Origin: a virus
Length of the DNA: 64,000 nucleotides
IMG/VR virus record: IMGVR_UViG_3300037549_000096
Direction: 5' to 3' (one strand)
The notes beneath the pieces are model-generated. The model saw only the letters and a program-made list of their open reading frames with translations, had not been told where the DNA came from and made no database searches. Positions within the stretch are counted from its first letter, which is position 1, and every line of letters starts with the position of its first letter. The position numbers and the translations under genes are program-made. Positions 3,794-20,500 of this stretch are shown piece after piece.

Positions 3794-4066
3794 ATGTTTG
3801 ATATGATGACTCCAATTTCTCAAGCTAAAAAAGGAGATATCATTCTTCTTAAGAAATTGACTGAGGCTCAAGGTTATATTATCGATCATACTGTTCCTTT
3901 ATATTTTATAGAATTAGAAAAAGAGAAACAGTATGTGAAAGCTTCGTTAGATCCTGCTTTTGAAAAAGAAATTAAACTATCATTAAGAGCAATTAAACAA
4001 ATTACGTCACCCCTTGGAGTCTTTGTTTATAAAGCTGATCCAAGAGATATTGTTTATGGTCAATAA
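3794..4066 (+). CDS. Hypothetical protein
   Basis: AAGGA RBS, 90 aa. Confidence 0.6.
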   Translation: MFDMMTPISQAKKGDIILLKKLTEAQGYIIDHTVPLYFIELEKEKQYVKASLDPAFEKEIKLSLRAIKQITSPLGVFVYKADPRDIVYGQ

Positions 4067-4069
4067 AGT

Positions 4070-4092
4070 AAAACAAGCTTAACGCTTGTTTT
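4070..4092 (+). terminator. Intrinsic terminator
   Basis: AAAACAAGC-TTAAC-GCTTGTTTT hairpin just after the stop. Confidence 0.65.
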
Positions 4093-4109
4093 GTATACAT
4101 AAAAATCGC

Positions 4110-4138
4110 TTGACTTTCTTATTATGTAGTGCTATGCT
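4110..4138 (+). promoter_or_regulatory. Sigma70-like promoter with extended -10
   Basis: TTGACT-17 bp-TATGCT with TGn, upstream of the RNR N-half. Confidence 0.65.
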
Positions 4139-4164
4139 TTATATCCAATGTGAGAGGAATATAA

Positions 4165-5340
4165 ATGAAAGACGTTAATACCTTCTTTTCGAGAGAAATC
4201 GATCCTGGAATGGGCATGGCAGTAGCCAAACGTACCTATTTAAGAAAAAATGAGTGTTGGGCCGATGTAGCAATGAGAGTTTCTGAAGGTAATGCGTCTT
4301 TAGTACCGACTACTAGAGAAGAACAATTAGAATTAACGAAAGCTATTGCTAAAGCCTCTTTTCTTCCTGCTGGTAGACATTTACAGCATGGTGATCATAC
4401 TCAGAAAGACAGAAATATTGAAGTATTTAGTAATTGTTCAACTGCTAATTCTTCATTTATTAAGTTTTATTTACTTCTAAATGGTAGCGGTGTCGGAAGA
4501 ATGTATAACAATGACCTTATGTTGATTGATTGGCGTAATATGCCAGAGGTTATTATTATACTTAGTCCTGATCATCCTGATTTTAAAGAATTTATTGAAA
4601 CGATTTATCGTTCAAAGATTGATCAGACTCTTAGTAAGCTTGATCAGTTTGAACAAGGTTTTAATTTATACGTAAAAGACATTGAAAGAATTAATCCTTA
4701 CAATCAAAATAACGTACATTACGATGTAGAAGATTCACGCGAAGGTTGGGCAAAGGGTTTAGAGTTACTTGAAGTGATGGCTTATGAAAAACGGTCTAAT
4801 TCTCAATTAGTTTTAGATTTATCTAATGTAAGAGAACGAGGTAAACCTATTGGCGGAATGCAGAAACGTCCCGCGAGCGGCCCAGCACCATTAGCTTATG
4901 CTTATTGGAAGACTTCTCTCATTCGTAAAAATATCTTTACTTATTATGATGAATATTTAAAGCAAGAAATCTTCCGTGACCTCGGACCCATTGATCCGTG
5001 GTTCCAAACGATTCTGATAGATCACTATCAATCTGAATGCGTAGCAAACGGTGGCGCTAGACGGTCTGCTCGTATTTCGGTGAAGGTATGGACTGATTTA
5101 GGAATTTTAGATTTTATCAATCTTAAGCATAACTTCTTAAATAGTAATGGTGAATCAATTCTTTGGTCATCTAACAACAGCGTAGGAGTTGATTCAGAAT
5201 TTTGGGATTCTATTAAAGATGAAACTAGTCAAGCATATATTGTTTACCAAGCTATTATAGATGCTTCTTATGGTCATGGAACCGGCGAACCTGGTTTAAT
5301 TAATTTAGATAAATTAACAGCAAATGAGAGTGGAATATGA
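4165..5340 (+). CDS. nrdJ: Class II (AdoCbl) ribonucleotide reductase, N-terminal half of a split gene
   Basis: Motifs LPAGRHL, FSNCS, NGSGVG, DSREGW, ASGPAPL, GGARRSA, GEPGLI; ends before NPCGE. Confidence 0.85.
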   Translation: MKDVNTFFSREIDPGMGMAVAKRTYLRKNECWADVAMRVSEGNASLVPTTREEQLELTKAIAKASFLPAGRHLQHGDHTQKDRNIEVFSNCSTANSSFIKFYLLLNGSGVGRMYNNDLMLIDWRNMPEVIIILSPDHPDFKEFIETIYRSKIDQTLSKLDQFEQGFNLYVKDIERINPYNQNNVHYDVEDSREGWAKGLELLEVMAYEKRSNSQLVLDLSNVRERGKPIGGMQKRPASGPAPLAYAYWKTSLIRKNIFTYYDEYLKQEIFRDLGPIDPWFQTILIDHYQSECVANGGARRSARISVKVWTDLGILDFINLKHNFLNSNGESILWSSNNSVGVDSEFWDSIKDETSQAYIVYQAIIDASYGHGTGEPGLINLDKLTANESGI

Positions 5341-5609
5341 AAATGGATTCACATCCTGAGATTATTAAGATCAAATCAACTCAAATTGAAATGATTAATA
5401 ATTTCACAGGATTTAAATCTAAACCTAAGAGTGTTAAAGAGTCTATTATTATATTATTAAGACAATATAATATGTTAAATACTCGTGATGTTGAATTTGC
5501 TTTATCTCCTTATTTTCATTCAAGTGAAGTAGGTTTTGCGCTTAATGATTTAGTGTTTAACAGAATTGTTAAAAGCGATATGATAAAGGATATTTTATCA
5601 TTGAGGTAA
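5337..5609 (+). CDS. Hypothetical protein (possible winged helix)
   Basis: ATGA overlap with the nrdJ-N stop. Confidence 0.5.
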   Translation: MKMDSHPEIIKIKSTQIEMINNFTGFKSKPKSVKESIIILLRQYNMLNTRDVEFALSPYFHSSEVGFALNDLVFNRIVKSDMIKDILSLR

Positions 5610-5612
5610 ATC

Positions 5613-5816
5613 ATGTATGTTATTAATTATCAATGGGCGAAACTTTCTCCAATCAAATATGTTAATCCACATATAGGAAGTATAGTCTTTGGTGGTGATA
5701 AATGGGAAGCGATACCTCGTTTTTATTATGAAGAATCAAGAACAAAGTTTACTTCTCTAAAAGAAGCAATTAATTGGATGGAGGGATTACATGTTAACCA
5801 AAGCGCAAGCATCTAA
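5613..5816 (+). CDS. Hypothetical protein
   Basis: GAGG RBS, 67 aa. Confidence 0.55.
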   Translation: MYVINYQWAKLSPIKYVNPHIGSIVFGGDKWEAIPRFYYEESRTKFTSLKEAINWMEGLHVNQSASI

Positions 5817-6015
5817 TCACTATTATACAATTCTTTTACCTGAAAAATTTGAAGATGTTTGTAATAAACTTGAAGACTCATATAAGAAAATCGTTACGAA
5901 CAACTCTTTAAATAAACCTATTAAATTAATTTCTCATAATGGTATTGAGTATAAATTTAATCTTCCAATAGAATTAAGAGCATTCATCCTTGGTTTAAGT
6001 TTTAAAAAGGATTGA
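5791..6015 (+). CDS. Hypothetical protein
   Basis: GGAGG RBS, 74 aa. Confidence 0.55.
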   Translation: MLTKAQASNHYYTILLPEKFEDVCNKLEDSYKKIVTNNSLNKPIKLISHNGIEYKFNLPIELRAFILGLSFKKD

Positions 6016-6016
6016 T

Positions 6017-6190
6017 ATGACTTTTCTTGTTAATCTAATTAAGAAGATCATTAATTGGTTATTAAGTCTGTTTGGGTATAGTAACTTAGCTAAACCTTAT
6101 GTAACTTTAACGGTAGGATCATCTTATCGTAAAACCGCAGAGCAAGTAATACTAACCTTGGGTATTTCACAAAGAAAACCCACTAACTAA
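6017..6190 (+). CDS. 57-aa protein with amphipathic N-terminus (not in ORF track)
   Basis: AAGGA RBS; MTFLVNLIKKIINWLLSLFGYSNLAKPYVTLTVGSSYRKTAEQVILTLGISQRKPTN*; fills the gap. Confidence 0.6.
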   Translation: MTFLVNLIKKIINWLLSLFGYSNLAKPYVTLTVGSSYRKTAEQVILTLGISQRKPTN

Positions 6191-6201
6191 AGGAGCCTAA
6201 C

Positions 6202-6537
6202 ATGGCTACTAGCAATCTTCCTTATTCGGATCAAGTAATCGTTACCGCTACGTTCTTTGATGGCGTAACTCCTACTCCGAAAGAAGCTCCAGTTACTAAT
6301 GTAACTGCTACTATCGATGATACCGCTATTGCAACCATTGGCGTTGTTATTCAAGTTAGTCCTTCTCAGTATACTGTAGAAGTTATTGCTGTTGGTGCTT
6401 TAGGAAATGCAGTTTTAACTATCTCAGGTACTAATTCACAGGGTCAAGTCGTTAGTGCTACTCAGGATTTTAGTGTTGTTGAAAGTCCTGCTGCTTCTGT
6501 TGTTATTGTTGTTGGTACTCCCGTAGCTAAGTCATAA
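6202..6537 (+). CDS. Ig-like beta-sandwich protein
   Basis: AAGGAG RBS; V/T-rich strands, DDTAIATI..VIAVGALGNAVLTISG pattern typical of Ig-like domains. Confidence 0.6.
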   Translation: MATSNLPYSDQVIVTATFFDGVTPTPKEAPVTNVTATIDDTAIATIGVVIQVSPSQYTVEVIAVGALGNAVLTISGTNSQGQVVSATQDFSVVESPAASVVIVVGTPVAKS

Positions 6538-6545
6538 TTCAATGA

Positions 6546-6572
6546 TGGTGGAGAGATAATATCTCTCCACCA
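6546..6572 (+). terminator. Stem-loop / terminator
   Basis: TGGTGGAGAGAT-AAT-ATCTCTCCACCA perfect 12-bp inverted repeat. Confidence 0.6.
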
Positions 6573-6595
6573 ATCGTTTATTTCATGGAGTTAAA

Positions 6596-7030
6596 ATGTT
6601 AGTTGAGTTTATTCCTTTAGTTCATAACCCATTGCCGTTATTTTATGCGACATTATTAAGCTCTGGTATCGATCTTAGAGCTTATGTTAAGAGTCGTACT
6701 CTTACAGTTTATCCTAATCAAAGAGTTATTGTTGAGACTGGTTATAAATGTAAGTTAGATCCAGGTTTTGAAGGTCAGATTCGTTCTCGTAGTGGATTAG
6801 CTGCTAATAATGGTGTGATTGTTTTAAATGCGCCTGGAACGATTGACGCTGATTATGATGGACCTATTAAAGTAATTCTCTATAATACATCACCTGATCC
6901 ATTTCAGATTCAACACGGTGATCGAATTGCTCAGTTTGTCATCGTTCCGGTAGTAAGAGAAGATACTTATATGCCATTAGATGTAATTGAACGTGGAACT
7001 GGTGGCTTAGGATCTACGGGTGTAAAATGA
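6596..7030 (+). CDS. dut: Trimeric dUTPase
   Basis: SGIDLRA, RSRSGLA, GTIDADYDG, GDRIAQ, RGTGGLGSTG motifs. Confidence 0.95.
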   Translation: MLVEFIPLVHNPLPLFYATLLSSGIDLRAYVKSRTLTVYPNQRVIVETGYKCKLDPGFEGQIRSRSGLAANNGVIVLNAPGTIDADYDGPIKVILYNTSPDPFQIQHGDRIAQFVIVPVVREDTYMPLDVIERGTGGLGSTGVK

Positions 7031-7410
7031 ATGCAGTAGATTGGCGAGGATTGGAACGTATTATTATCGTATTAGCTGCGATGATTATTTCAATCCTTGG
7101 TTATCTATTATTCAAAGCAGGTATTACTAGCTATAATACAGTAGATGTAAAAACGTCGTTTGGTAAAATCATTATTTCAGGTACAGGTCCAGGTTTAAGT
7201 TTCATGATTTTTAGTGTATTTGTTTTAATTTATGCTATTAAAAGTGGTGGTGCTAGTGTTGTAACAGATGCTAAACTAAATCAAGTTACTGAAAGTTTAG
7301 ATACTCTTAAAAAATCGCATGAAAATTTAAAGACTCAAGTGTTAGGTAATAGTCAAGAGTTAAAATCAATAGAAACGTTAAAATCAGTTCGTCAACCACA
7401 GGAGAAATAA
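7027..7410 (+). CDS. Membrane protein, two TM segments plus coiled coil
   Basis: Two hydrophobic stretches and a heptad-like C-terminus. Confidence 0.6.
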   Translation: MNAVDWRGLERIIIVLAAMIISILGYLLFKAGITSYNTVDVKTSFGKIIISGTGPGLSFMIFSVFVLIYAIKSGGASVVTDAKLNQVTESLDTLKKSHENLKTQVLGNSQELKSIETLKSVRQPQEK

Positions 7411-7411
7411 C

Positions 7412-7867
7412 ATGGAAACTTACGTTGTCGGTTTTTGTTTTAATGAAGATAAATCCGAAGTAGCACTTATTAAGAAAACGCATCCAGAATGGCAGGCCGG
7501 GCTTTTCAATGGAATTGGAGGTCATGTTAATGAAGACGAAACACCTTTAGAAGCAATGCAACGAGAATTTAAAGAAGAAGCTGGTGTTGATACTGTTCTT
7601 ATTGATTGGCATTTATTTGCTGAGTTATCTGGTGATTATTTCCATTTATATTGTTTTAATTGTTTTGATGATGAAATTTTCAAAAACATTAAAACTTGCA
7701 CCGATGAATTTATTATACCGTTCCCTACAGCTTGTATTAAAATTAGAGATTCTAGATTCATTTCTAATCTATCCTGGTTATTAGGTATTTGTCTTGATGA
7801 AGATATGTCACGGATTAATGTACAAGCTACTTACGAAAATCTTGAAGCGTTAACCCAGGAGCGATAA
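7412..7867 (+). CDS. Nudix hydrolase
   Basis: Nudix box GGHVNEDETPLEAMQREFKEEAGV. Confidence 0.9.
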   Translation: METYVVGFCFNEDKSEVALIKKTHPEWQAGLFNGIGGHVNEDETPLEAMQREFKEEAGVDTVLIDWHLFAELSGDYFHLYCFNCFDDEIFKNIKTCTDEFIIPFPTACIKIRDSRFISNLSWLLGICLDEDMSRINVQATYENLEALTQER

Positions 7868-8211
7868 TGTCTATGATGGCTCTTGATTTTGACGGAACGC
7901 TTTGTGTTCATGCTTTTCCTGAAATTGGCGAAGTATTAGAGCAACATCTAAAAGTTCATGAAAGAGTTAGAAAGTTTAAAGAAAATGGTGGAATAGTCAT
8001 TCTCTGGACTTGTCGAGACGATAAAGAAGAAAGAGCTTATCTCACTGAAGCTGTTGAATGGTGTAAAAAACATAATATTCCTATTGATTATGCTAATTGT
8101 TATCCTAATCCTGGTTGGAGTGGTTTTGAGATTGGTGAAATAATCCCTTGTCGAAAAGTTTGTGCTGATGTTTATATTGATGATAAATGTTTGCATGTAG
8201 ATCATTGTTAA
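7867..8211 (+). CDS. HAD-superfamily phosphatase-like protein
   Basis: DFDGTL, ILWTCR, K..ADVYIDDK motifs. Confidence 0.8.
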   Translation: MSMMALDFDGTLCVHAFPEIGEVLEQHLKVHERVRKFKENGGIVILWTCRDDKEERAYLTEAVEWCKKHNIPIDYANCYPNPGWSGFEIGEIIPCRKVCADVYIDDKCLHVDHC

Positions 8212-8217
8212 GGGGAA

Positions 8218-8571
8218 GTGATGAATCGTGATCAGTTTAATAAATTAATCGATGAAACGTTTACTAAAATTAAAAATTTAAGCAATACTAAAGGTGAAGA
8301 ATATAGCGGACAGGAAGACGCTTTAGCTAATTTTAAACGTAATGCTGAAAGAATGGGTCTTGATCCTCTTCAAGTATGGTTCGTTTATACAGCTAAACAT
8401 TTTGATTCAGTTTCTACATTCATTAAAGATATTGCAAGTAATAAAGTAAGAAATTATAGTGAACCGATTGATGGTAGAGCCGATGATCTTATTGTTTATT
8501 TCTTAATTTTCAAAGCACTTTATAAAGAAAAACTAGAGCAGAATACTAAGGCTTTATCGGAGATTAGATAA
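8218..8571 (+). CDS. DUF1599/nucleotide-modification-associated helical protein
   Basis: KGEEYS..DALANF...E.I..R.DDLIVY pattern. Confidence 0.55.
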   Translation: MMNRDQFNKLIDETFTKIKNLSNTKGEEYSGQEDALANFKRNAERMGLDPLQVWFVYTAKHFDSVSTFIKDIASNKVRNYSEPIDGRADDLIVYFLIFKALYKEKLEQNTKALSEIR

Positions 8572-8575
8572 TAAA

Positions 8576-9433
8576 ATGTTATTACCTTTTAAATGGGTTG
8601 GTCTTAGTTTTAATAATTGTGAAATTATTAAACCTATTGATTTATCTAAAATTAAAGGTAAAGATTTTTATGAATGTAAATGTTATTGTGGAAAAGCTTT
8701 TAACGTTAGACCTTATGATTTAAGTTATAATAGAGTCAAATCATGTGGTTGTTTAAAAAGAAAGATCGTTAGTGATTTAGGTAAAAGTTTTAGAAAATAT
8801 AATTATTATAATTTTATTAATGAACAAACTAAAGCTCAAATACTTAGACCTGTAGATCCATTAAAAGAAAATAACATAGACGAATGGATTTGTTTATGCC
8901 CTTATCATGATCCGCCAGTAGAATTTATTAATATTCCTAGTAGTATTATATCTGGTGTAACTAAATCATGCGGTTGTCTTGCTCCTAAAAAAGCTAGTGA
9001 ACGTTTTATTTTATTTAATAAACAACAAAAATTAAATCGACATTTATTTAAAAATAAATGTATTTCTAAAAATATTTTAATACGTAATTTAATATATAAT
9101 CCAATAAAACATTTAATTTATAAACTTCATAAAACATGTGCATTATGTAATATAAACAAAACTGCTAATATTCATCATATTATCCCATTACATACAATTG
9201 ATCATAACGATATTACTACTTATTTAATAGCTTATGATATAAATAATCTAATTGGTTTATGTAAAGACTGTCATTGGTTAGCGCATGATTATGATGTTTA
9301 TTGTATTGATAAACCTATTCAGAAAGAATTACAAAATTTAGTAAAATCAAGAAAAGTTTCTAATAAATTAATGTTAGAATATAATAATATAATAGAAATA
9401 AGAATTAAACCCTATCTTAATAAATTAATATAA
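8576..9433 (+). CDS. HNH homing endonuclease
   Basis: CxCG..KSCGCL repeats; CALC..IHHIIP..NLIGLCKDCH; paralog of 47289..48374. Confidence 0.85.
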   Translation: MLLPFKWVGLSFNNCEIIKPIDLSKIKGKDFYECKCYCGKAFNVRPYDLSYNRVKSCGCLKRKIVSDLGKSFRKYNYYNFINEQTKAQILRPVDPLKENNIDEWICLCPYHDPPVEFINIPSSIISGVTKSCGCLAPKKASERFILFNKQQKLNRHLFKNKCISKNILIRNLIYNPIKHLIYKLHKTCALCNINKTANIHHIIPLHTIDHNDITTYLIAYDINNLIGLCKDCHWLAHDYDVYCIDKPIQKELQNLVKSRKVSNKLMLEYNNIIEIRIKPYLNKLI

Positions 9434-9441
9434 GATAGTTG

Positions 9442-9470
9442 TTGACATTTTATTTAATTTATGCGATACT
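9442..9470 (+). promoter_or_regulatory. Sigma70-like promoter with extended -10
   Basis: TTGACA-17 bp-GATACT with TGn, upstream of the RNR C-half. Confidence 0.7.
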
Positions 9471-9494
9471 TGTTATCACTCTTTGAGGTAGCTC

Positions 9495-10553
9495 ATGATT
9501 GAATCTAAGAAATACAAACTATCAGAAAGCGCGAAATCATATTATGAACAACTTTATAAACAAGTAAGTGAGTCAAAATATAAATATCTTACTAATCCTT
9601 GTGGTGAGATTACCTTAAGAGCTTCTGGTGGCTATTGTATTATATCTGACATAGTTCCTTTTCATTGTGATACGTTAGAGGAAGTATTAGATGTTGGTAG
9701 AATTGCCGCTAGATTCTTAATTCGTGTTAATACAATGGATTCACTTTATAGTGATGAAACTAAACGAACTAATCGTATTAGTGTTTGTATTACTGGTATT
9801 CATGAATTCGCTTGGAAGTTCTTTGGATTAGGTTTTAGAGACATTTTAAATCCTGATTGGAATAAAGCATTTTGGCAATTCATCAATAAACTTGGTAGAG
9901 CTATTGAAGAAGCAGCAAAAGCTTATTGTTTAGAACTTGGAATTGAATGTCCTCATACTTATTTAGCGATTAAACCTTCCGGTTCTGTGTCTAAACTATT
10001 CGCTCTTACCGAAGGCGCGCATTTACCTTCAATGGTAGCATATATGCGTTGGGTTCAATTCCAGAATGGTGATCCTTTAATTCAAAAATATATGGATCGT
10101 GGTTATCCTGTACTTCCGTGTAACTCTTATCCTAATATGACAAGAGTTGGATTTCCTACCGTTCCTGCTATTACTAAATTAGGAATGGGTGATAAATTAG
10201 TAACAGCTAATGAAGCTACGCCAGAAGAACAGTATCAATATCTTATGTTATTAGAAAAACACTGGCTTGGAGAAGGTAACAACCAGATTTCATATACGCT
10301 TAAATTTAATAAAGATAAAGTAACCCGCGAAGAATTTAGCGAAATGCTGGAAAAATATCAGTCACAGATTAGGTGCTGCGCTGTTATGCCCTCTGTTAAC
10401 GAAGAAGAATTGAAGTCACGTTATGAGTATCTTCCTGAAGAAAGTATTACTATGTCTGACCTTTTGAATATTATATCTAACATTAACGATCCTGATATGG
10501 ATCAAGTGTTAGATCCAGAGACTTTAGTTTGTGCAGGTGCATGTCCTTTATAG
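9495..10553 (+). CDS. nrdJ: Class II ribonucleotide reductase, C-terminal half of a split gene
   Basis: TNPCGEI (thiyl radical Cys), GGYC, KPSGSVSKL, C-terminal CAGAC; own GAGG RBS; in-frame TAG two codons upstream. Confidence 0.88.
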   Translation: MIESKKYKLSESAKSYYEQLYKQVSESKYKYLTNPCGEITLRASGGYCIISDIVPFHCDTLEEVLDVGRIAARFLIRVNTMDSLYSDETKRTNRISVCITGIHEFAWKFFGLGFRDILNPDWNKAFWQFINKLGRAIEEAAKAYCLELGIECPHTYLAIKPSGSVSKLFALTEGAHLPSMVAYMRWVQFQNGDPLIQKYMDRGYPVLPCNSYPNMTRVGFPTVPAITKLGMGDKLVTANEATPEEQYQYLMLLEKHWLGEGNNQISYTLKFNKDKVTREEFSEMLEKYQSQIRCCAVMPSVNEEELKSRYEYLPEESITMSDLLNIISNINDPDMDQVLDPETLVCAGACPL

Positions 10554-10587
10554 GTTTATGAAATTGTTTTTTAGCTATTTAACACCA

Positions 10588-10615
10588 AAAGAGCCGAATT
10601 TATCTTCGGCTCTTT
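10588..10615 (+). terminator. Intrinsic terminator
   Basis: AAAGAGCCGAA-6 nt-TTCGGCTCTTT. Confidence 0.75.
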
Positions 10616-10641
10616 GCATATCTAAACTACTATGATATAAT
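10613..10641 (+). promoter_or_regulatory. Extended -10 promoter
   Basis: TGATATAAT at 10633-10641 with TTTGCA/TTGCAT 16-17 bp upstream. Confidence 0.6.
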
Positions 10642-10658
10642 TGATTCAGGAGTACATT

Positions 10659-10985
10659 ATGATTGTTAAATTAGCTGGATTTATTCCGAAAGCTACTGGA
10701 TTTATACCTAAAGCAATTGAAGGATTAGGATTATCTAATCTATCTAAAAAGTTAGCCGGGAATCCAGGTTTAGTTAGTAAGATTCAGAATGCATCTTTAA
10801 TTCCGACTATCGCTTTAGGTGATGGTGCCGTGAAAGCTATGGACGCAAAACCTGGAGAGTCAAAAATAAAAGCATTTGGTAAAGGTGCTGCTCAAGGTGC
10901 ATTTGCTGGTGCGCTTATTGGTGGTGCAGATCAATTAGTAAATACTTTAGCTCATCATGGCGCTACTAAATTAATAGCTAAATAA
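10659..10985 (+). CDS. MIVKLA-tagged glycine-zipper protein
   Basis: AGGAG RBS before ATG 10659; starts MIVKLA; GFIPKA occurs twice; GKGAAQGAFAGALIGG. Confidence 0.75.
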   Translation: MIVKLAGFIPKATGFIPKAIEGLGLSNLSKKLAGNPGLVSKIQNASLIPTIALGDGAVKAMDAKPGESKIKAFGKGAAQGAFAGALIGGADQLVNTLAHHGATKLIAK

Positions 10986-10999
10986 GGTATTAAACCTAA

Positions 11000-12445
11000 A
11001 TGAGTGATCTTTTTTGTTCTACACTTAATGAATTAAGACTAACTTCTGTTAGTGGATTAGATAATCTTACAACCGCTTATGTAGGTACATTAAGAAGTCT
11101 TTTTATATGGGTTAATAATGAAGGCGGTACAGATGATAATCAAACTGTTATCACTCCTTCTAATAATCCACCTTCAGGAAGATGGATTTGTCCACAAGCT
11201 CCTATAATTCCTAATCAAACAACACCTTGGAACTTAGTAGATAAAACTGGATCTAAACTAAGTGATCTTAGTATTAGATCTGCTACTGATTTAGACTCAG
11301 GTACAATACATTATTTACGTTTACCTGATGGTGTTCCTTATTTTAATCCTGCTCCACCTTTAATGATTTTAACTACAGATAATAGTGGTAATTATCAGTT
11401 AACACATATTAACGTTTCTCAGTTAGATGGTTTAGTTCCTTTTGGTAAAATTGATTGGACTAATTTTGATCCTAATACTATTGGAGCCGAATCTTTAATA
11501 GTATTTAATCCTAATCAGTTTGATGTAGATGCTTTTAATAATGTATCTATTAAATTAATGTCGAATAATCAAGCAGGTTTAGCGATTCCAGGCGAAGGAA
11601 TTATATCAGATACTCAAGGAAGAATTAATGTTATATATGGAACAGGCCCTAGTCAAGCTTTAGAAGGTACTACTCCTTTAGGCGGTGATTTAAGTGGCGA
11701 ACATTCTACTGCTGTAGTTGATGCTTTACGTAATGTTCCATTAACTTTCTTTTTTAATGAATTAGAAGATAAAGATGGTTATATTTTAAGATTAAATAGT
11801 TCTAACCATAGTACGCCGTTCTTTTATCTTTCTCCTGGTGGTAGTGGTGGTAACGGTAATGTCTTTAGTATTGAATTTAATTGTTCTACTCCAATTGCAG
11901 AGATTGGACAAACTGTTTCTAATCTTTTATTTAATGCTGCTTATAGTGGAACTGTAACAAGTGCTACTCTGACTGATACATTAGGACATTCTACTAATTT
12001 AACAAGCCCTTATACTTCGGTTGTTTCACCTTATTCATTTACTGAAAATACACAAACAAGCATTACATTTACTTTATCTATCTTAGATTCAGAAAGCGCA
12101 AGCCATGAAGCAACTACAGAAGTTTCTTGGTTGCCACGAATTTATTGGGGATCATATATAGCTACTACTGATTATATAAGTTTAATCAACGGTCTACAAT
12201 ATTCGCAATTAGCCTCAACCCGTAATGGCAGTTTCACAGCAAATCCTGGTTTAAGTGAATATATTTATTATGCTGTACCTTCTAGTTTTGGGTCTGCTAT
12301 TCTAAGTGTTGGTGATATTGTGGGCGGGATTGAATGTATTGCCTCTTCAATTATGATTACTAATTCGTATGGAATTACAATTCCATACGATATTTATAAG
12401 TCAGATAATGTTGGGTTAGGTCAAACAACAGTGGTGGTTAACTAA
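11000..12445 (+). CDS. Tail fibre/structural protein
   Basis: DDNQTVITP..GRW motif, LGGDLSG fibre motif, beta-rich C-terminal domain. Confidence 0.65.
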   Translation: MSDLFCSTLNELRLTSVSGLDNLTTAYVGTLRSLFIWVNNEGGTDDNQTVITPSNNPPSGRWICPQAPIIPNQTTPWNLVDKTGSKLSDLSIRSATDLDSGTIHYLRLPDGVPYFNPAPPLMILTTDNSGNYQLTHINVSQLDGLVPFGKIDWTNFDPNTIGAESLIVFNPNQFDVDAFNNVSIKLMSNNQAGLAIPGEGIISDTQGRINVIYGTGPSQALEGTTPLGGDLSGEHSTAVVDALRNVPLTFFFNELEDKDGYILRLNSSNHSTPFFYLSPGGSGGNGNVFSIEFNCSTPIAEIGQTVSNLLFNAAYSGTVTSATLTDTLGHSTNLTSPYTSVVSPYSFTENTQTSITFTLSILDSESASHEATTEVSWLPRIYWGSYIATTDYISLINGLQYSQLASTRNGSFTANPGLSEYIYYAVPSSFGSAILSVGDIVGGIECIASSIMITNSYGITIPYDIYKSDNVGLGQTTVVVN

Positions 12446-13075
12446 ATGCCTATTCCGATTATTGCCGAATTAGTTCCTAAGAATGCAGGGCAATTTGCTC
12501 TTTTAGATGATTCTAATATAAGAGGCGGTTTAAGAGTTTGTGCATTATTAAATGATCGTGATAATATTTCAGACGATAAACGTAAAGAAGGAATGCTTGT
12601 TTATGTAATTGAAACAGGATTAATGTATTCTTTAGCTCATGATTTAGTTTCATGGAATCCGGCTTCAGGTTCAGGTGATATTAGCGCATTGGTTTTAACC
12701 GCAGTATTAGCTGGTTATACTTTAGGCTCAGATGGAACTAGTTTACTTTCAACCGATACAATACTTCATGCATTTCAAAAGATTCAAGTTCAAATAAATA
12801 ACAAACAAAGAAAACCTGTAGTATCTCATGTAACTGGAACAACAGTTCTTGATGCATCAACTGATATTTTAATTATAAACTCAGTTGTTAATTGTGATGT
12901 TTTTTTACCTTCTATTTCTGGTAATACATCTTATCGTACTAAAAGTATAGGTTCAGGTATCGCTACCTTAAGACCAAATGGTTTAAATACGGTCGAAAAT
13001 TTACCTTCCTATAGTATCCTAACTAAAAACGCTTTTGATCTTGTATCTTATTCTAATAACTGGTATATTCTCTAA
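12446..13075 (+). CDS. Tail fibre-associated protein
   Basis: RKEGMLVYV domain; shares the TDTILHAFQKIQVQIN module with 13088. Confidence 0.6.
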   Translation: MPIPIIAELVPKNAGQFALLDDSNIRGGLRVCALLNDRDNISDDKRKEGMLVYVIETGLMYSLAHDLVSWNPASGSGDISALVLTAVLAGYTLGSDGTSLLSTDTILHAFQKIQVQINNKQRKPVVSHVTGTTVLDASTDILIINSVVNCDVFLPSISGNTSYRTKSIGSGIATLRPNGLNTVENLPSYSILTKNAFDLVSYSNNWYIL

Positions 13076-13087
13076 GGAGAGACTCTC

Positions 13088-15778
13088 ATGGCTTATATTT
13101 TAAATAGTCCCGTATTTACGGGTAATCCTCAAGCTCCTACTCCTTTAACTGCGGATAATAGCACTAGTCTCGCTACTACTGCATTCGTTAAAGCACAAGG
13201 TTACGGATTAGGTTCTGTAACCGCCATTGGCGTAACTACAGCTAACGGAGTGTCAGGTTCATCTTCGGGTGGATCTACACCTAACTTAACGATTACATTA
13301 GGCGCGATTACTCCGACTAATGTAAATGGTTTAACTTTAACTGCTAACGCAACTGGTTTCCAGATCGCTGGTGGTACGACTAGTAAAACATTGATTGTTC
13401 AGAATAACCTTACTCTCGCTGGTACAGATTTAGCAACTTTGAATATTGGTGGTGGTGGTACTTTAGGTAGTGCTGCTTATACTGCTTCTTCTGCTTATCA
13501 ACCTGTAGCTACTAATTTAACTAGTATTGGTTCATTAGCTAACTCTGCTGGTGTTTTATATAATAATGGTTCTGGAACATTTACTTATGCTGTTTTAGGT
13601 GGAACTGCTCAAGCTGATGCAGGTGCAGGAAGTAATGGAACTGGAACTGCTGTTGCTTTAGCTAATCACGTTCACCCTCTTAGTACTGCTTATGAACCAG
13701 CTTTAGGTAATCCTGGAACTAATGGCTGGATTTTATCTTCAACTACAGCCGGAGTTAGAAGCTGGATAGCGATGACAGCGGGTTTCTCTAACCCAATGAC
13801 AACAACTGGCGATATAATGATCGCTAATCCAACAACTACCGCAGTTAGATTAGGTATTGGTACAACTGGATATGTTTTGACTGTTGTTGGTGGTTTACCT
13901 GCATGGTCTAACACTCCTACCTTAACTGGTACAAATTTTAGTGGTATTGGTAATAGTGCATTAACTAACAATACGGTTACAATTGGCTCTACTTCAGTTG
14001 CTCTTGGTGCTACTGTTACTACGTTTGTTGGTTTAGTATCTGTAACTTCTACTACGTTTGTTGGTGCTTTAACTGGTAACGCTTCAACTTCAACATCATT
14101 AGCAGGTGGTTCTACTGGTGCTTTAGTTTATCAAAGTGGTGCTGGCGCCACAGCTTTCTTAGCTGCTGGTACTTCTTCACAAGTCTTAGTTGGTGGTGCT
14201 TCACTTCCCGCTTGGTCTAATACACCTACATTAACTGGTACTAATTTTACTGGTATTCCCGAATCTGCCGTAACTAACTTAACAACTGACTTAAGTAATA
14301 GAGTATTAATTTCTTCTGTTGGTGTTGCTAATGGCGTTGCTTCACTTGACTCTGGTGGTCATGTACCTTTAGCTCAATTACCTACTGCTATTCAAGGCGC
14401 TTTACAGTATCAAGGTACTTGGAATGCCTCTACAAACACTTCTCCTGCTTTAGCTTCAGGTGTTGGTACTAAAGGTTATTATTATAAAGTATCAGTAGCA
14501 GGTACTACTACTATTGATACTGTCTCTAACTGGAATGTTGGAGATATGATCGTATTCGATGGAACTACCTGGGATAAGATAGATGGTCCTGCTGAAGCTG
14601 TTATTAGCGTTAACGGTTCTATTGGTGCTGTAACGGTAGCAGCAACTAACCAGACCATGTATTTAGGTACTACTGCTTTAACTATTAACGCTACTACTGG
14701 TACACAAAATACTATAGCCGGTATGACTTCAATTACATCAACAACTTTTGTTGGTGCTTTAACTGGTAATGCTTCTACAGCTACTTCATTAAGCGCGGGT
14801 GCTACTGGTTCATTACCTTATCAGTCTGGTGCGGGTGTTACTGCTTATTTAGCAGCGGGTACAGCTTCTCAAGTCTTAATTGGTGGCGCTTCATTACCTG
14901 CCTGGACTAATACTCCTACTTTAACAGGTACTAACTTCACAGGTATTCCTGGTACTGCTATTAATAGTATTGTTGCTACAGCTACATTAGCTTCTACTTC
15001 TACTATAGCTAATGATAATGCTACTAATGCTTCTATGTATCTTACCTGGGTTACTGCTACTACAGGTTCTTTAGCTCTTAAGACTACTACTGCTATTGCC
15101 GTTAATCCTTCGACTGGTATTTTAAGTGCTACTGGCTTTGCTGGTTCTGGTTCTGGTTTAACTTCATTAACTGCTGGTAATTTAAGTGGTACTATTCCTT
15201 CAGGTGTTTTAGGTAACTCTACTGTTTATATTGGTACGACCGCAGTAGCCTTAAATAGAGCCTCTGCCGCTTTAGTTCTCACTGGTATTACTTCAATTGA
15301 TGGTTCTGCTGCTTCTATTAGTGGTAACTTAACTGGTGACGTAACTTCGGTAGGTATGACTACTAGTTTAGCTGCTTCTGTTGTAATGGGTAAAACCTTA
15401 ACTGGTTATAGTGCTGGATCTGATTATACTCAATTAGCTTCTACTGATACATTATTACAAGCTTATCAAAAATTACAATATCAAATTAATGTTAGTATTC
15501 TTCAAGGTATTTCTACTAAGACTACTACTTATAACCCTGTAGTTGTGACTGATAAATTTATTCGTTTAGATGCTACTGGTGGTGCATTTAACGTTACTTT
15601 AATGGCCGCGCCTCCTACTGGTTATTGGTGCGTATTTAAGAAGATTGATTCTACCGCTAATGCGATTACTATTTCTGGTAATGGTAAAACAATTGATGGT
15701 AATGCTTCTGTTACTATTTCTGCTCAATATAATGCATTAGAACTTCAATACAATGGTACAACTTGGGATATCCTGTAA
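13088..15778 (+). CDS. Long tail fibre protein
   Basis: G/T/S/A-rich; PTP..ADNSTSLATTAFV; YQGTWNASTN..GDMIVFDG..WDKID; ~75-aa internal duplication. Confidence 0.8.
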   Translation: MAYILNSPVFTGNPQAPTPLTADNSTSLATTAFVKAQGYGLGSVTAIGVTTANGVSGSSSGGSTPNLTITLGAITPTNVNGLTLTANATGFQIAGGTTSKTLIVQNNLTLAGTDLATLNIGGGGTLGSAAYTASSAYQPVATNLTSIGSLANSAGVLYNNGSGTFTYAVLGGTAQADAGAGSNGTGTAVALANHVHPLSTAYEPALGNPGTNGWILSSTTAGVRSWIAMTAGFSNPMTTTGDIMIANPTTTAVRLGIGTTGYVLTVVGGLPAWSNTPTLTGTNFSGIGNSALTNNTVTIGSTSVALGATVTTFVGLVSVTSTTFVGALTGNASTSTSLAGGSTGALVYQSGAGATAFLAAGTSSQVLVGGASLPAWSNTPTLTGTNFTGIPESAVTNLTTDLSNRVLISSVGVANGVASLDSGGHVPLAQLPTAIQGALQYQGTWNASTNTSPALASGVGTKGYYYKVSVAGTTTIDTVSNWNVGDMIVFDGTTWDKIDGPAEAVISVNGSIGAVTVAATNQTMYLGTTALTINATTGTQNTIAGMTSITSTTFVGALTGNASTATSLSAGATGSLPYQSGAGVTAYLAAGTASQVLIGGASLPAWTNTPTLTGTNFTGIPGTAINSIVATATLASTSTIANDNATNASMYLTWVTATTGSLALKTTTAIAVNPSTGILSATGFAGSGSGLTSLTAGNLSGTIPSGVLGNSTVYIGTTAVALNRASAALVLTGITSIDGSAASISGNLTGDVTSVGMTTSLAASVVMGKTLTGYSAGSDYTQLASTDTLLQAYQKLQYQINVSILQGISTKTTTYNPVVVTDKFIRLDATGGAFNVTLMAAPPTGYWCVFKKIDSTANAITISGNGKTIDGNASVTISAQYNALELQYNGTTWDIL

Positions 15779-15781
15779 ACA

Positions 15782-16822
15782 ATGGCTTATATTGTAAATA
15801 GCCCAACGTTTAGCGGGACTGTTACAAGTCTTGGGCCTATTTCGTTAGCGGCTTCCCAAGGTATAGTAGTTGCATCTGGCGCTCCAGGTGTGACTACTAA
15901 TACCTTATATCAAATTGCAGGAACGTTATATTTTAACGGTAATTCTGTTGGTGGTATTGGTGCTTCTTATAGTCAAACAATTGGTAATGGAGCTTTAACT
16001 TCTATTGTTGTTACTCATGGTTTGGGGACTACAGATATAAATGTAACTGTTTGGGAATTAGGTGGTAGTAAACGAAACGTAACTGCTGCTATTGAAATAC
16101 AAAATACTAGTTCTACTCAAATTACTTTAATATTTGCTACTGCTCCTGCTACTAATTCATTACGTGTAGATATTACACCTTTAGGTACTTCTGGTAGTTA
16201 TACGTTAACAGATGACACGGCAACAAATGCTACTTATTACCCAGTAGTAGCTACGGCTTCTGGTGGTTCTACTTTAAAAACTTCATCAACTAAGTTAAGT
16301 TATAATCCATCTACTGGAAATCTCGTATCCACAAGTCATAATAGTGTAGTTATTACTCCACCTGCCACTACTGCTACTTTAACTTTAGCAAATAACTCTT
16401 CTTTAATTACTTCTGGAGCTTATTCTACTACTCTTACGGTTACGGGTACAACTACTTTAACTTTACCTACTAGTGGCACTCTCGCTACTACTTCACAAAT
16501 ACAAGGTGTTACAACTGTAAGTTTTGCTTCTACGATTAATCTAGATTTAACTACTATTCCAGGTCCAGTAGCTAGAATAACTTTAACAGGAACATGTACT
16601 ATAAATATCACTAATGGATCTGATGGTCAAAAAGTATTATTAGAATTACTTCAAAATGGAACGGGAACATACGTGGTTACATTAGGAACTGGTTGGGCTT
16701 ACGGGACTGATATTACAAGTTATACTAATACATTAACAGCCAGTAAGCGAGATATTTTAGGATTAGAATATAATTCATCACTTTCAAAAGCTATGTTAAT
16801 CGCTGTAGCTCACGGATATTAA
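15782..16822 (+). CDS. Tail fibre protein
   Basis: N-term MAYIVNSP matches 13088; shares modules with 17502. Confidence 0.7.
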   Translation: MAYIVNSPTFSGTVTSLGPISLAASQGIVVASGAPGVTTNTLYQIAGTLYFNGNSVGGIGASYSQTIGNGALTSIVVTHGLGTTDINVTVWELGGSKRNVTAAIEIQNTSSTQITLIFATAPATNSLRVDITPLGTSGSYTLTDDTATNATYYPVVATASGGSTLKTSSTKLSYNPSTGNLVSTSHNSVVITPPATTATLTLANNSSLITSGAYSTTLTVTGTTTLTLPTSGTLATTSQIQGVTTVSFASTINLDLTTIPGPVARITLTGTCTINITNGSDGQKVLLELLQNGTGTYVVTLGTGWAYGTDITSYTNTLTASKRDILGLEYNSSLSKAMLIAVAHGY

Positions 16823-16823
16823 T

Positions 16824-17492
16824 ATGGCGATAGCTCTTAGACATTCTTATATAACAAGATCAGTTAAAGTTCAATCTGGTGTAGCTGTTACTGTAGGTGA
16901 TATTATTGTAGTTTTTTTAGGTGGTGCTTCTTCAGTTAATATTACGTCAAGTTGTGCTGATAATTCTAGTGGTGGAACGAATACTTATACTAAACAAACA
17001 GGAACTTATGGATATTTGTTTACTAATGCAGGAATGAGTATTGATGTTTTTACCGCAAAAGCAAAAGCTACTGAAACTCTAACTATTACCGTTACTTCAA
17101 CATTACCTACAGCAGATGATATAGCTGTTCAAGTGATTTCTGGTGCAGCCGCTTCTTCTTATGTAGAAAGTATTGCTTATCAAGATTGTGTCTCTGGTGG
17201 AGGTACATCTTTTACTGGCGCTTCTATTACTACTACAAATGCTAATGATTATTTAGCTTGTTTTTGGGATGCAGATTATAACGGTGTTACCTGGACTGAA
17301 AACGGAGCAGGTTTTACTATTGATAGTCAATCGGTAACTGGAGTTAATAGTTATAGAGTAGTATCTTCTATAGGAACTTATGCAGATAAAGTAACAACAG
17401 GTGCTAATACTCAAGAACCCGCCTGTGTTATGTTAGCTATTAAAGCTGCTGGCTCTAGTTATGATGCTACAAAAATGTTAGCTTGTTTTTAA
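16824..17492 (+). CDS. Fibre tip / receptor-binding beta protein
   Basis: GDIIVV..DNS.G.NTYT beta-sandwich pattern within the fibre cluster. Confidence 0.55.
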   Translation: MAIALRHSYITRSVKVQSGVAVTVGDIIVVFLGGASSVNITSSCADNSSGGTNTYTKQTGTYGYLFTNAGMSIDVFTAKAKATETLTITVTSTLPTADDIAVQVISGAAASSYVESIAYQDCVSGGGTSFTGASITTTNANDYLACFWDADYNGVTWTENGAGFTIDSQSVTGVNSYRVVSSIGTYADKVTTGANTQEPACVMLAIKAAGSSYDATKMLACF

Positions 17493-17501
17493 GGTGTAAT
17501 T

Positions 17502-20500
17502 ATGGCTTTAGCGCAATTACAAGTATCTGATCCTATTTCTACTACCGGATTAACGATAGTAGGTACTACTACAGGAATTATTATACCTTCAGGCGTTCCT
17601 TCTAATGGCACAACTAATGCTTTATATCAAGTAAGTGGAAGTTTATATTTTAATGGTTCAGTTTTAGGCGGCGGTTCCGTAACTCTTACAGACGACAATT
17701 CAACAAATGCTACTTATTATCCAGTTATCGCTACTACGGCTGGCGGATCTACCTTAAAAACAAGTTCTACTAAAATAAGCTTTAATCCTTCAACTGGTAA
17801 TCTTGTAATTGGTGGACCTTTAACTTTAGCCGCTTCACAAGGTATTACTTTACCTAGTGGGGCTCCTGGAACTACTACTAATGCTTTATATAGTGTTAGT
17901 GGAACTTTATACTTTAACGGAACTGCTATTACTGGTGGTACTGGCTTGACTAACCCAATGACAACATTGGGAGATTTTATTTATGGTGGCGCTTCTGGTG
18001 CAGGAACTAGATTAGCTGGTAATATTACGGCTAGACAGCAAATGTTAGTTCAAATGGGAACTGGTACAGTTTCAGCGGCTCCATATTGGATTAATACACC
18101 TGAAATTATTATTACCGGAATGGACCCTACAGGCGCAACTGATTCGACTTCCGCTATCAATACAGCTATAACCGCACTACCCACAAATGGCGGAACATTA
18201 AGAATACCTGATCCTGGTCCAACTGGGTTTTATAGTTTTAATTTAGTATTAACTAAAACTGGTGTAACTATTATTGGTCCTGGAATGTCAAATTCAGGGA
18301 CTAATGGTGGTGGTGCGCCTGTCAGATATTGTCAAGCTTATAATACAACATTACCTGTAATACAAATAGGTAATGATACTTTATCTGTATATACTGATAG
18401 TTGTCATTTAAGAGATTTTTGTTTTTATGGTGGAAATAATAGTAGTCAATATGGATTAACTCTTACAGGCGGCTGTATAGCGGCTTGTTGTGAAGATATT
18501 CAAATTATTAATTTTAGTAATCAGGGCCTTACAATTAAAAATGAAGACGTTACAGAATGTGAATATAGCAAGTTTTATAATCTTCGTATTAACTCAAATA
18601 TAGCTGGTGCTGTTGGTTTAGCTATTTTAGATAAACATGTATCTGGTACTGGCTGGACTAGTGCTATAGATATTATTGGTTTTAGTATTCAGGCTGTTAG
18701 TTATCAAATACTTTGTGATTCAACTCAAGCTAATTTAACAAATGGTTATATCCAAAGTGGTGTTAGCGGTTCTAGCATCATGATTAAAAATTCATATTCT
18801 GGTGCTAATATTCAATATATTGGTTTAGTTTGTGAAAATGTTAATCAAGATGCTGTTGGAACTGGCAATTATAACGTTGGAACTACAGTTAATATTCCAA
18901 CTATAAACTCAACAAATCTACAAGAGTCATCTTGGATATCAGGAGACTTTAGTTCTGGTGGAAATACTTTTGTAGCTCCTATTACTACTACTGGAAGTAT
19001 TACTGGAGGTCTTAAAGCATTAACGGTAGCTAGTGCTACTGGTATTTATGCTGGCAAAGCTGTAATGGTGGTTGGAGCAGGCCCAAACTACCTTAACTTT
19101 GTTTCTTTTGTACAAAGTATTTCAGGAACTACGTTAACATTATTTGATGCCGCTAATTATACAGTAGCAGGAGCTACAGTATATGTAGGAGATATAACTG
19201 GTTTTGAAGCACATTCAATGTTTAATAATAGTGCTGGTTATGTAGGATTTTATCCATTAAATAAAGCTGGTATTAATACAAGTAATGCTCCTATTTTATA
19301 CCAAACAGCTTGTCCTCGGTTAACCGCAGATCAACCCGGTCAAATTGGTCCATGGAATCAATACGGTAATGTGATTTTTGAACAAGGATTATATAATTTT
19401 TATTTATTAGAACAAATAGGAACAGCCGCTACACCTACCTCTATTACTCAATCTGGTTATACTGTAACTGTAACAATGGGGTCTTATGCTGCTCCCGGCG
19501 ATATTGTTGTTATCGGAGGCGTAAAAGAACGTGGTATCAATGGAACTTGGGTAGTTCAAACCGTTCCTGGTGGTTATCAAAACAATTTTACATTTACATG
19601 TAATTTTAGCCAAACATTAGCGGGTGTTACAGGTGTCCCTTTAGTAACAATCTATAAATCTACTAGTTTTGGTGGATCACAAGATGCAGATAATCACCCT
19701 GGATCAATCAATATACCTAGTGGTGAAAAATCAGGTATCTGGTTTAGTAATCCTACTGTAGCTGGTGGTAATTTAGCTAAAACATTATATCAAGACGCTG
19801 GATCAAGTAATTTCTATTTAATGACTCCAGATGCTACTAATGGTATTTTAAATCTTTGGGCCGGGACCGCAATAACAACAGGACCAGTTTTAAATATAGG
19901 TGATTCAGGCGGAACTGTTTTTAGTGTAAGTGGATTAGGTCAAGTTACAGCTAATGGTGCTATTAACAAAGTAACGATTACAGCACCTACTACTTCAGCT
20001 ACATTAACTTTAATTACAGGATCTACTTTAGCTACAAGCACAGCGGCATCCTTAACATTAGCTCTTTCTACTGTAGCTACAACTGTAACTACAATTCCTT
20101 CCGGTACACATAGTTTAGCTATTACAGATGCAGCTAATACATTCTCTGGATTACAAACATTTAGTAATGGTATTACTGTAAATAACACTACTATAACTGC
20201 CCCACAATCTACAGCTTCTCTCGCGTCTTTAACTCTTCCTTTAGGTTCTGCGTCTTACACTGGTGGAACTTTAGGAACAATCTGGAATGATTATACTAGA
20301 CAGACTTTAGGAGTTAATGTAGGAGCTTCTGGTTATCCATTAGTCAATTATTGGTCTGGTGTGATTTGGACTAAAACCGCAGCAACTACTCTATCTAACT
20401 GGACAACCGCAGCTACTATATTAGGTGCCGCCGGTACAGGTGTAGGCACTCTTACTCTTCCTGCTAACTTCTTTGTTGTTGGTAAGACTATTAGATTAAC

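Follow-up and report, generated by a model that had tools for sequence, protein, structure and literature searches.

Can the active site of a ribonucleotide reductase (RNR) be assembled from two separately encoded chains that are not covalently rejoined? This question is raised by a stretch of 64,000 nucleotides (nt), hereafter the window, which is part of a lake phage genome of 168,567 base pairs (IMG/VR virus record IMGVR_UViG_3300037549_000096; CheckV completeness 100%). Two open reading frames (ORFs) of the window correspond to the N-terminal and C-terminal halves of a monomeric class II RNR, also known as RTPR (ribonucleoside-triphosphate reductase) or NrdJm, and are separated by an interval of 4,154 nt that holds exactly 11 ORFs:

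4165-5340, plus strand: RNR N-half, 391 amino acids (aa); N-terminal helices, P-A-G-R at residues 68-71, Cys91, insertion domain at 174-244 and first half-barrel; end GEPG...LDKLTANESGI
9495-10553, plus strand: RNR C-half, 352 aa; lead-in helix, finger loop with Asn34, Cys36 and Glu38, then Cys48, second half-barrel, C-terminal domain and redox tail with Cys346 and Cys350

We consider it highly probable that these ORFs specify two chains of one adenosylcobalamin (AdoCbl)-dependent ribonucleoside-triphosphate reductase, which assemble non-covalently. Judging by the sequences, the pair very probably represents a functional two-chain RTPR, the enzyme activity itself being something that we infer. 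A first-pass annotation of the window, based on its letters and ORFs, had recognized a class II RNR in these two ORFs, 4.15 kb and 11 genes apart, with the catalytic cysteines placed on different chains. By residue number, Cys91 is on the N-half, and Cys36, Cys48, Cys346 and Cys350 are on the C-half. Sequence, profile and fold comparisons all agree with this description, which turned out to be right in every checkable detail.

Identification of the two halves

For both halves RTPR is the best-scoring family (81 bits for the N-half and 113 bits for the C-half), and on the corresponding NCBIfam profile TIGR02505, which has 724 positions, the N-half covers positions 29-326 and the C-half positions 357-681. 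The sole PDB sequence match of either half is RTPR of Lactobacillus leichmannii (1l1l_A). The same structure is the top Foldseek match for the AlphaFold2 models of the N-half alone (mean predicted local distance difference test score (pLDDT) 84.8; E 3e-12, query TM-score (TMq) 0.61) and of the C-half alone (mean pLDDT 80.8; E 1.6e-17, TMq 0.67), and neither model contains a complete barrel. Residues 33-352 of the C-half align with residues 405-738 of 1l1l_A, the cysteines of the NPC, GGYC and CAGAC motifs falling on Cys408, Cys419 and Cys731/736. By this alignment, Asn34, Cys36, Glu38, Cys48, Cys346 and Cys350 of the C-half are equivalent to L. leichmannii residues 406, 408, 410, 419, 731 and 736, respectively. 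Cys91, the sole invariant cysteine of the N-half, is, from its position, the putative counterpart of L. leichmannii Cys119.

The N-half also carries the RNR-II insertion domain (PF21995), a mimic of the dimer partner, at residues 174-244 (35.5 bits against a cut-off of 27). Its apical loop reads P-A-G-R (residues 68-71), with Gly70 and Arg71 invariant across 57 N-halves; compared with the triphosphate-type loop P-S-G-R (PMC8365446), it has Ala for Ser. Monomeric class II RNRs are recognized, among other things, by consisting of one polypeptide, whereas here there are two ORFs 4,154 nt apart. A search of the 168.6-kb genome for a second RNR of class I, II or III (PF02867, PF13597 and PF00268) gave nothing beyond the N-half.

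The break in the barrel

The break had been placed between GEPG and the thiyl-radical motif NPCGE, and it indeed lies there, 32 residues upstream of NPCGE. The C-terminus of the N-half reads ...GEPGLINLDKLTANESGI and is followed by a TGA stop; the chain passes GTGEPG..LDKL and terminates with ANESGI, which aligns with QNDEGL of the intact proteins. The C-half starts with MIESKKYKL... and has TNPCGEI as residues 33-39, its Met occupying the column of the first residue in [FV][IV]GSKKYQ of the intact proteins. Aligning the halves with intact phage RTPR, a check proposed in the first-pass annotation, leaves the two alignments separated by just 12-39 nt. What is missing at the cut, according to the junction alignment with intact proteins, is a poorly conserved linker of about 10-15 aa. 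Intact phage RTPRs have a 10-15 aa linker at this place and otherwise share the same domains and catalytic residues, at 42-48% identity for isolated phages and up to 55% for a viral contig (L006). They are encoded by a single ORF of about 690-800 aa, as in Tunturiibacter phage Tunturi_5, Rhizobium phage RHph_I4 and about 50 IMG/VR loci.

In the models, the N-half ends just past a strand at residues 377-380, and the C-half begins with a helix at residues 11-25 that is followed by the finger loop at 31-48. Since the finger loop is inserted between barrel strands E and F of RNR (PMC9669993), these strand and helix positions would put the cut at the seam between the two five-stranded half-barrels. 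The cut would thus occupy a variable linker on the surface, with the closing strand of the first half-barrel (GEPG) upstream of it and the helix leading to the finger loop (NPCGE) downstream. Because it separates the first half-barrel from the finger loop, the active site would be composite. The first chain would contribute Cys91, the phosphate loop and the specificity (insertion) domain, and the second chain the radical Cys36 together with Asn34, Glu38, Cys48 and the Cys346/Cys350 redox tail. Each turnover would then include a transient inter-chain disulfide between Cys91 and Cys48.

Multimer prediction, also suggested in the first-pass annotation, is consistent with such an arrangement. Three predictions for the complex of the two halves gave values of the interface score ipSAE of 0.89, 0.87 and 0.89, whereas none of the three controls exceeded 0.00, with 333-344 contacts, at least 80% of which agree between runs, and a partner pLDDT of at least 84. 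When the tool was calibrated, 58 of 80 solved complexes and 2 of 110 mismatched pairs attained this mark, counts that apply only roughly here because the alignments were not the calibrated ones. The predicted interface sets residues 88-96 of the N-half, around Cys91, against the finger loop of the C-half (residues 31-55), and also takes in the N-half tail (377-388) and the C-half head (2-29). When the C-half is folded alone, its finger loop (32-46) is predicted with low confidence. The complex model suggests that the pair fits one RTPR fold, which is not the same as binding.

Occurrence of the split in related phages

The split is not confined to the window. A search with the N-half, restricted by length, recovered from public metagenomes about 14 clusters of stand-alone N-halves at 60-75% identity (375-411 aa) and about 40 at 45-51% (334-367 aa). 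The mirror search with the C-half gave about 11 stand-alone clusters at 64-80% identity and about 25 at 49-60% (350-355 aa). All ten loci that were read across the cut hold both halves, and their C-halves without exception begin in one and the same column of the alignment (MI[EG]SxKY). As to domain annotation, stand-alone C-halves (window 9495-10553 and proteins P0122-P0158) have no Pfam-A match and are labelled 'hypothetical protein' at their source, and PF21995 is the only Pfam match of stand-alone N-halves.

Four loci (L058-L061), with N-halves of the closer group, are syntenic with the window, having homologous 716-aa and 90-aa genes upstream and homologous 114-aa and 481-aa genes downstream, and all four have the same cut. 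The distance between their halves is 557 nt in L060, 2,327 nt in L058, 2,666 nt in L061 and 4,374 nt in L059, compared with 4,154 nt in the window; two further contigs end inside the cargo after >2.7 kb and >4.1 kb. These gaps hold 1-11 tightly packed genes that differ from genome to genome and have few members in common. QueC, dNMP kinase, dUTPase, NUDIX, methyltransferase and peptidase genes are found among the cargo across genomes, and no gene recurs except one of 67 aa and one of 117 aa (phrog_6802). In the window, the gap contains the following:

5337-8571, plus strand: ten cargo ORFs, the first overlapping the N-half stop; most variable between related genomes
5613-5816, plus strand: 67-aa gap gene, common to L058, L059 and L060, where it lies beside the N-half
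6596-7030, plus strand: dUTPase (cargo; Pfam PF00692, E 1e-23), with a homologue in the L061 gap
7412-7867, plus strand: NUDIX hydrolase (cargo; Pfam PF00293, E 9e-11)
8218-8571, plus strand: 117-aa gap gene (phrog_6802), common to L058, L059 and L060; directly precedes the C-half promoter in L058 and L060
8576-9433, plus strand: free-standing HNH endonuclease gene (PHROGs HNH families), between the 117-aa gene and the C-half promoter

Homologues of the 67-aa and 117-aa genes make up the entire gap of L060. Directly after the C-half of the window lies an ORF (10641-10985) that, read from an internal Met, begins with MIVKLAG, and homologues of it follow the C-half in all four syntenic relatives.

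A sister lineage (L001, L007, L039, L067 and L068) has the two halves adjacent, 11-15 nt apart and in different frames, with a GAGGGA-type ribosome-binding site (RBS) in the spacer. Its RNR is preceded by a fused RNA polymerase of 1,995 aa together with two other genes. The window has homologues of this block at 33791-39745 (48-52% identity), 39760-41604 and 41585-42475, 30 kb from the RNR halves, and the partners in the polymerase match are the very polymerases that adjoin the adjacent halves in L007, L039, L067 and L068. The flanks of RNR in the nearest IMG/VR matches (L001, L007 and L039) are unrelated to those in the window, and the kinship is seen through the polymerase block only. Neither the 67-aa nor the 117-aa gene occurs between the halves of the sister lineage. 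The window polymerase gene (33791-39745) is a 1,984-aa ORF that looks like a fused beta/beta-prime-like phage RNA polymerase; its homologues in L068 (1,992 aa) and L067 (1,995 aa) carry Rpb2- and Rpb1-type domains, and the nearest isolated phages for it are Vibrio phages D181, D148 and D69, at about 30% identity.

Two other forms of RTPR deserve mention. In Rhizobium phage vB_RleS_L338C (L069, NC_023502 62020-64433), RTPR is annotated as four abutting or overlapping coding sequences of 120, 167, 138 and 390 aa, the last of which begins about 20 residues upstream of the cut point in the window. In P11VFA and RHph_I4, close relatives of L338C, RTPR is one gene, and the L338C pieces are either frameshift errors or decay. 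A C-half-sized relative is encoded on a Rhizobium ruizarguesonis plasmid (P0234, 350 aa, 'hypothetical protein'; 48% identity, 95% coverage) and could be a piece of an RTPR belonging to a prophage or phage-plasmid.

Nine related loci have contiguous inteins between the proline and the cysteine of NPC, in three cases inside split C-halves. The loci are L007:10001-11446, L039:8801-12262, L061:13858-16011, L025-L028, L030 and L041. The inteins are 128-369 aa long, have the thiyl cysteine as their +1 residue and are found in intact genes as well as in split C-halves; L039 has a second insertion further downstream. Their presence in nine loci marks this region as a favoured target of mobile elements.

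Transcription and translation of the halves

Each half is preceded by a GAGG-type RBS and a promoter-like site of its own, and these were found, at the level of consensus, as the first-pass annotation had described them (TTGAC, a 17-nt spacer and TGn):

4110-4138, plus strand: promoter-like site before the N-half (TTGACT, 17 nt, TGc TATGCT; consensus match)
4152-4158, plus strand: RBS of the N-half (GAGAGGA, read from the sequence)
6546-6572, plus strand: terminator-like hairpin in the gap, 12-bp stem (consensus match)
9442-9470, plus strand: promoter-like site before the C-half (TTGACA, 17 nt, TGc GATACT; consensus match)
9485-9489, plus strand: RBS of the C-half (GAGGT, read from the sequence)

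A generic sigma-70 scan yielded promoter-like matches no more often than chance (32 found against 37 expected from shuffles). A stricter pattern, combining a -35 element with an extended -10 and suggested by the two RNR sites themselves, has just three occurrences in 64 kb, where 0.5 would be expected, and the two sites before the RNR halves are among them. The N-half promoter architecture is also present before the N-half of L059 and L061, and a matching C-half site is found in L058 and L060. The first gap ORF overlaps the N-half stop (ATGA), and the hairpin at 6546-6572 would part the N-half transcript from the later genes. Taken together, these signals suggest that the two halves are transcribed separately.

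Phylogeny and selection

In the maximum-likelihood phylogeny (54 sequences, 752 columns), one side of a branch with a Shimodaira-Hasegawa-like approximate likelihood ratio test (SH-aLRT) value of 100 consists of the eight split forms. The split requires one change on this tree, and none of 500 label shuffles did as well. A single origin of the split is therefore well supported by the sequences but not proven, because the root of the tree is not known and the stem of the split clade is long (0.56).

The ratio of nonsynonymous to synonymous substitution rates (dN/dS) ranges from 0.02 to 0.27 in pairwise comparisons of both halves, and for the N-half of the least saturated pair, L001-L039 (dS ~0.3), it is 0.08. 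Cys91 of the N-half and Asn34, Cys36, Glu38, Cys48, Cys346 and Cys350 of the C-half are invariant in all 54 sequences, among which 176 window positions are at least 95% conserved. These patterns indicate that both halves are under purifying selection.

Several points weigh against a functional two-chain enzyme inherited from one ancestor. The profile scores of both halves are below the curated RTPR cut-off of 340 bits, a value set for a single chain. The high score of the predicted complex may be a memory of the single-chain structure 1L1L. The long stem of the split clade is followed by a further 0.5-0.6; it could reflect faster evolution after the cut, and there is some room for long-branch attraction between the two split subclades. 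In most pairs dS is saturated (>1), only the L001-L039 ratio is clean, and the C-half alignment of this same pair crosses inteins. Finally, the promoters are consensus matches only, and L059 and L061 have no such site before the C-half.

Alternative explanations

It might be argued that the two ORFs are decaying remnants of an RNR broken by an insertion, the phage relying on the reductase of its host. Split genes in phage contigs are often pseudogenes, and the four overlapping RTPR pieces annotated in L338C resemble decay or sequencing error. Nevertheless, we find this explanation very unlikely, since dozens of diverged lineages keep full-length halves, each with its own RBS and conserved start, and both the low dN/dS and the invariant catalytic residues speak against decay.

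Just as improbable, in our opinion, is a return to one continuous chain through an intron (giant or trans-splicing), a split intein or ribosomal bypassing. The idea is a natural one, RNR genes being well-known homes of introns and inteins. Split inteins occur in fractured NrdJ genes (PMC2677866), and the contiguous inteins described above reach even into split C-halves. Against it, no intein family matches either half, and the junction alignment reveals no added tail, IntN or IntC on either. There is no room for a split intein, because the N-half extends only 6 residues past its last aligned position and the first 32 residues of the C-half are extein-homologous. An intron at the junction was likewise rejected: a scan of positions 3800-10900 with Rfam (E up to 1) returned no intron family, only two chance-level matches to unrelated families, and the N-half stop overlaps the next ATG. 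Programmed excision fared no better as a candidate, as no direct repeats flanking the gap were found and scans of the gap ORFs with Pfam and PHROGs gave no recombinase family. The first-pass annotation had already remarked that no intein motifs or intron-sized non-coding space are visible, and these results agree with it. Moreover, any such device would have to cope with a densely filled gap of 1-11 genes whose identity varies from genome to genome and, in the sister lineage, with a spacer that is just an RBS between halves in different frames.

Could the HNH endonuclease now in the gap have cut the gene in this very genome, as mobE did in phage Aeh1, bringing the gene block along? The HNH gene does abut the C-half, or more precisely its promoter, as noted earlier, and this route is known for Aeh1 nrdA (PMC3045599). 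Its assignment comes from PHROGs HNH families (E 3e-12), the Pfam HNH match being weak (E 0.003, below cut-off). The same cut, however, is present in relatives without an HNH gene between the halves, namely in all four syntenic loci L058-L061, and in the sister lineage with nothing between them. The GC content of the gene is 20-26%, as against about 33% around it. Low GC and absence from this position in relatives point to a later arrival, and its site between the conserved 117-aa gene and the conserved C-half promoter to insertion into a pre-existing gap. HNH genes are also found elsewhere around the RNR and tail-fibre region of the relatives (L058:14669-15439, L059:19100-19504 and L061:18038-18919), in a different place in each genome, a pattern suggestive of mobile, free-standing homing endonucleases. 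No closer relative was seen in which the gene is intact and the HNH site empty. The role of the HNH gene as the agent of the split is thus not borne out; by its sequence and distribution it appears to be a late passenger rather than the cause, and we give the opposite view hardly any credence.

Nor do we put more trust in the possibility that the halves have diverged functionally, each acting alone or with some other partner. That they are unlinked, apparently separately promoted and on long branches would fit this possibility; it is contradicted by the conservation of the residues of one active site on both chains, by the co-occurrence of the halves in 10 of 10 loci and by the lack of a complete barrel in either.

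An assembly artefact that hides halves contiguous or adjacent in the real genome is the least credible explanation of all: the record is a single metagenomic contig and two other contigs end inside or beside the gap, but the four syntenic relatives were sampled and assembled separately (JGI, ENA), and all have this split around a gap content of their own. In addition, contigs of other samples match the window with 100% identity, one over 8518-17553 and another over 9398-11413; for a Logan contig, the identical stretch takes in the 117-aa gene, the HNH gene and the C-half. Among contigs of 50-200 kb, three carry the N-half and two the C-half. The identical contigs from the two other samples end beside the HNH gene, and these breaks may reflect its presence or absence in the population.

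Comparison with other divided reductases

To our knowledge, NrdA of phage Aeh1 (class Ia) is the only characterised RNR whose active site is divided between two unspliced chains. This RNR with genes in pieces was reportedly described by Friedrich in 2007 and Crona in 2011. In the Aeh1 arrangement (NrdA-a/mobE/NrdA-b), the cut follows the thiyl cysteine and the enzyme depends on tails derived from mobE (PMC3045599). The analogy with Aeh1 drawn in the first-pass annotation holds in part. As in Aeh1, a catalytic barrel would be formed by two separately translated, unspliced chains that share an active site, with partitioned cysteines and an inter-chain redox disulfide, and in both cases the setting is a phage with an HNH gene in the gap. 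The analogy fails with regard to the side of the thiyl cysteine on which the cut lies, the tails and the endonuclease as cause. Aeh1 NrdA is class Ia, needs NrdB and has Cys431 on the first chain, whereas the window encodes a monomeric class II enzyme cut before the thiyl cysteine; the unique mobE tails have no counterpart in the window halves. Aeh1 is also a single phage with the cause still in place, whereas the split described here is old, occurs in two lineages with halves up to 4.4 kb apart, and has the HNH gene as a later passenger.

Class II RNRs encoded by two genes, NrdJa and NrdJb, are found in Pseudomonas aeruginosa and other Proteobacteria (PMC4520616). In these, the cut comes after the barrel: catalysis and B12 binding reside on NrdJa (734 aa in P. 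aeruginosa, 798 aa in phage phiYS40), and NrdJb is a Cys-rich tail domain. The RNR of the window differs in being cut inside the barrel, and NrdJa/NrdJb are of the dimeric NrdJ type rather than NrdJm. Thermus phage phiYS40, with nrdJ-a and nrdJ-b of 798 and 199 aa and the whole PF02867 barrel in one frame, has a 12-nt spacer resembling the 11-15 nt of the sister lineage. We rejected it as a precedent for the window cut, as the window halves have no match to it and its split is of the NrdJa/NrdJb type, after the barrel.

For the fractured NrdJ genes, NrdJ-1 and NrdJ-2 among them, split inteins at NPC join the two pieces again (Dassa et al. 2009; PMC2677866). Like them, the window has a phage class II RNR in two pieces near the thiyl cysteine, and an endonuclease gene often lies between the pieces in those genes as well. 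Unlike them, with their IntN and IntC and protein trans-splicing at NPC, the RNR of the window is cut 32 residues upstream and has no intein blocks. We found no description of a split NrdJm/RTPR in the literature, most subscription journals lying outside the search. The window encodes a variant of the genes-in-pieces theme, made distinct by the class of the enzyme, the cut before the radical cysteine, the lack of a joining device and the persistence of the split in two lineages with unlinked halves.

Origin of the split and its implications

The favoured reading can be put into an evolutionary schema, whose cause and order of events we infer. The split probably arose once, in an ancestor of two related phage lineages with a giant RNA polymerase, the likely cause being a mobile element that inserted at the much-targeted region and has since gone. 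The ancestral state would have been two adjacent, translationally coupled genes. In the window lineage, the seam would then have become a place of gain and loss for accessory genes, the C-half would have acquired its own promoter, and the HNH gene would be the latest arrival in the window. Throughout, the two chains would be translated separately and would assemble into a normal RTPR fold without covalent joining. The comparative data support the proposal of the first-pass annotation, a two-chain class II enzyme with a gap later filled by a gene block, and add that the cut is common to two lineages, the halves being adjacent in one and 0.56-4.4 kb apart in the other.

It is tempting to speculate that the cut is useful and not a mere scar. 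The seam might serve as a protected, lineage-wide landing site for the exchange of accessory genes, those of nucleotide metabolism included, and separate promoters might gate the timing or the level of RNR activity. No activity would then appear until both chains had been made, which would amount to a natural two-component switch for a radical enzyme. We think this unlikely, though less so than any of the alternatives discussed above.

For surveys that use RTPR as a marker of virioplankton, there is an annotation gap: they will miss or mis-size the split clade, because stand-alone C-halves have no Pfam match and are labelled 'hypothetical protein'. If the pair is active, an RNR barrel can assemble from two chains unaided, and the pair would provide a natural template for split-enzyme design of radical enzymes. 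It would also mean that the scar of a mobile element can become a stable gene boundary that collects cargo.

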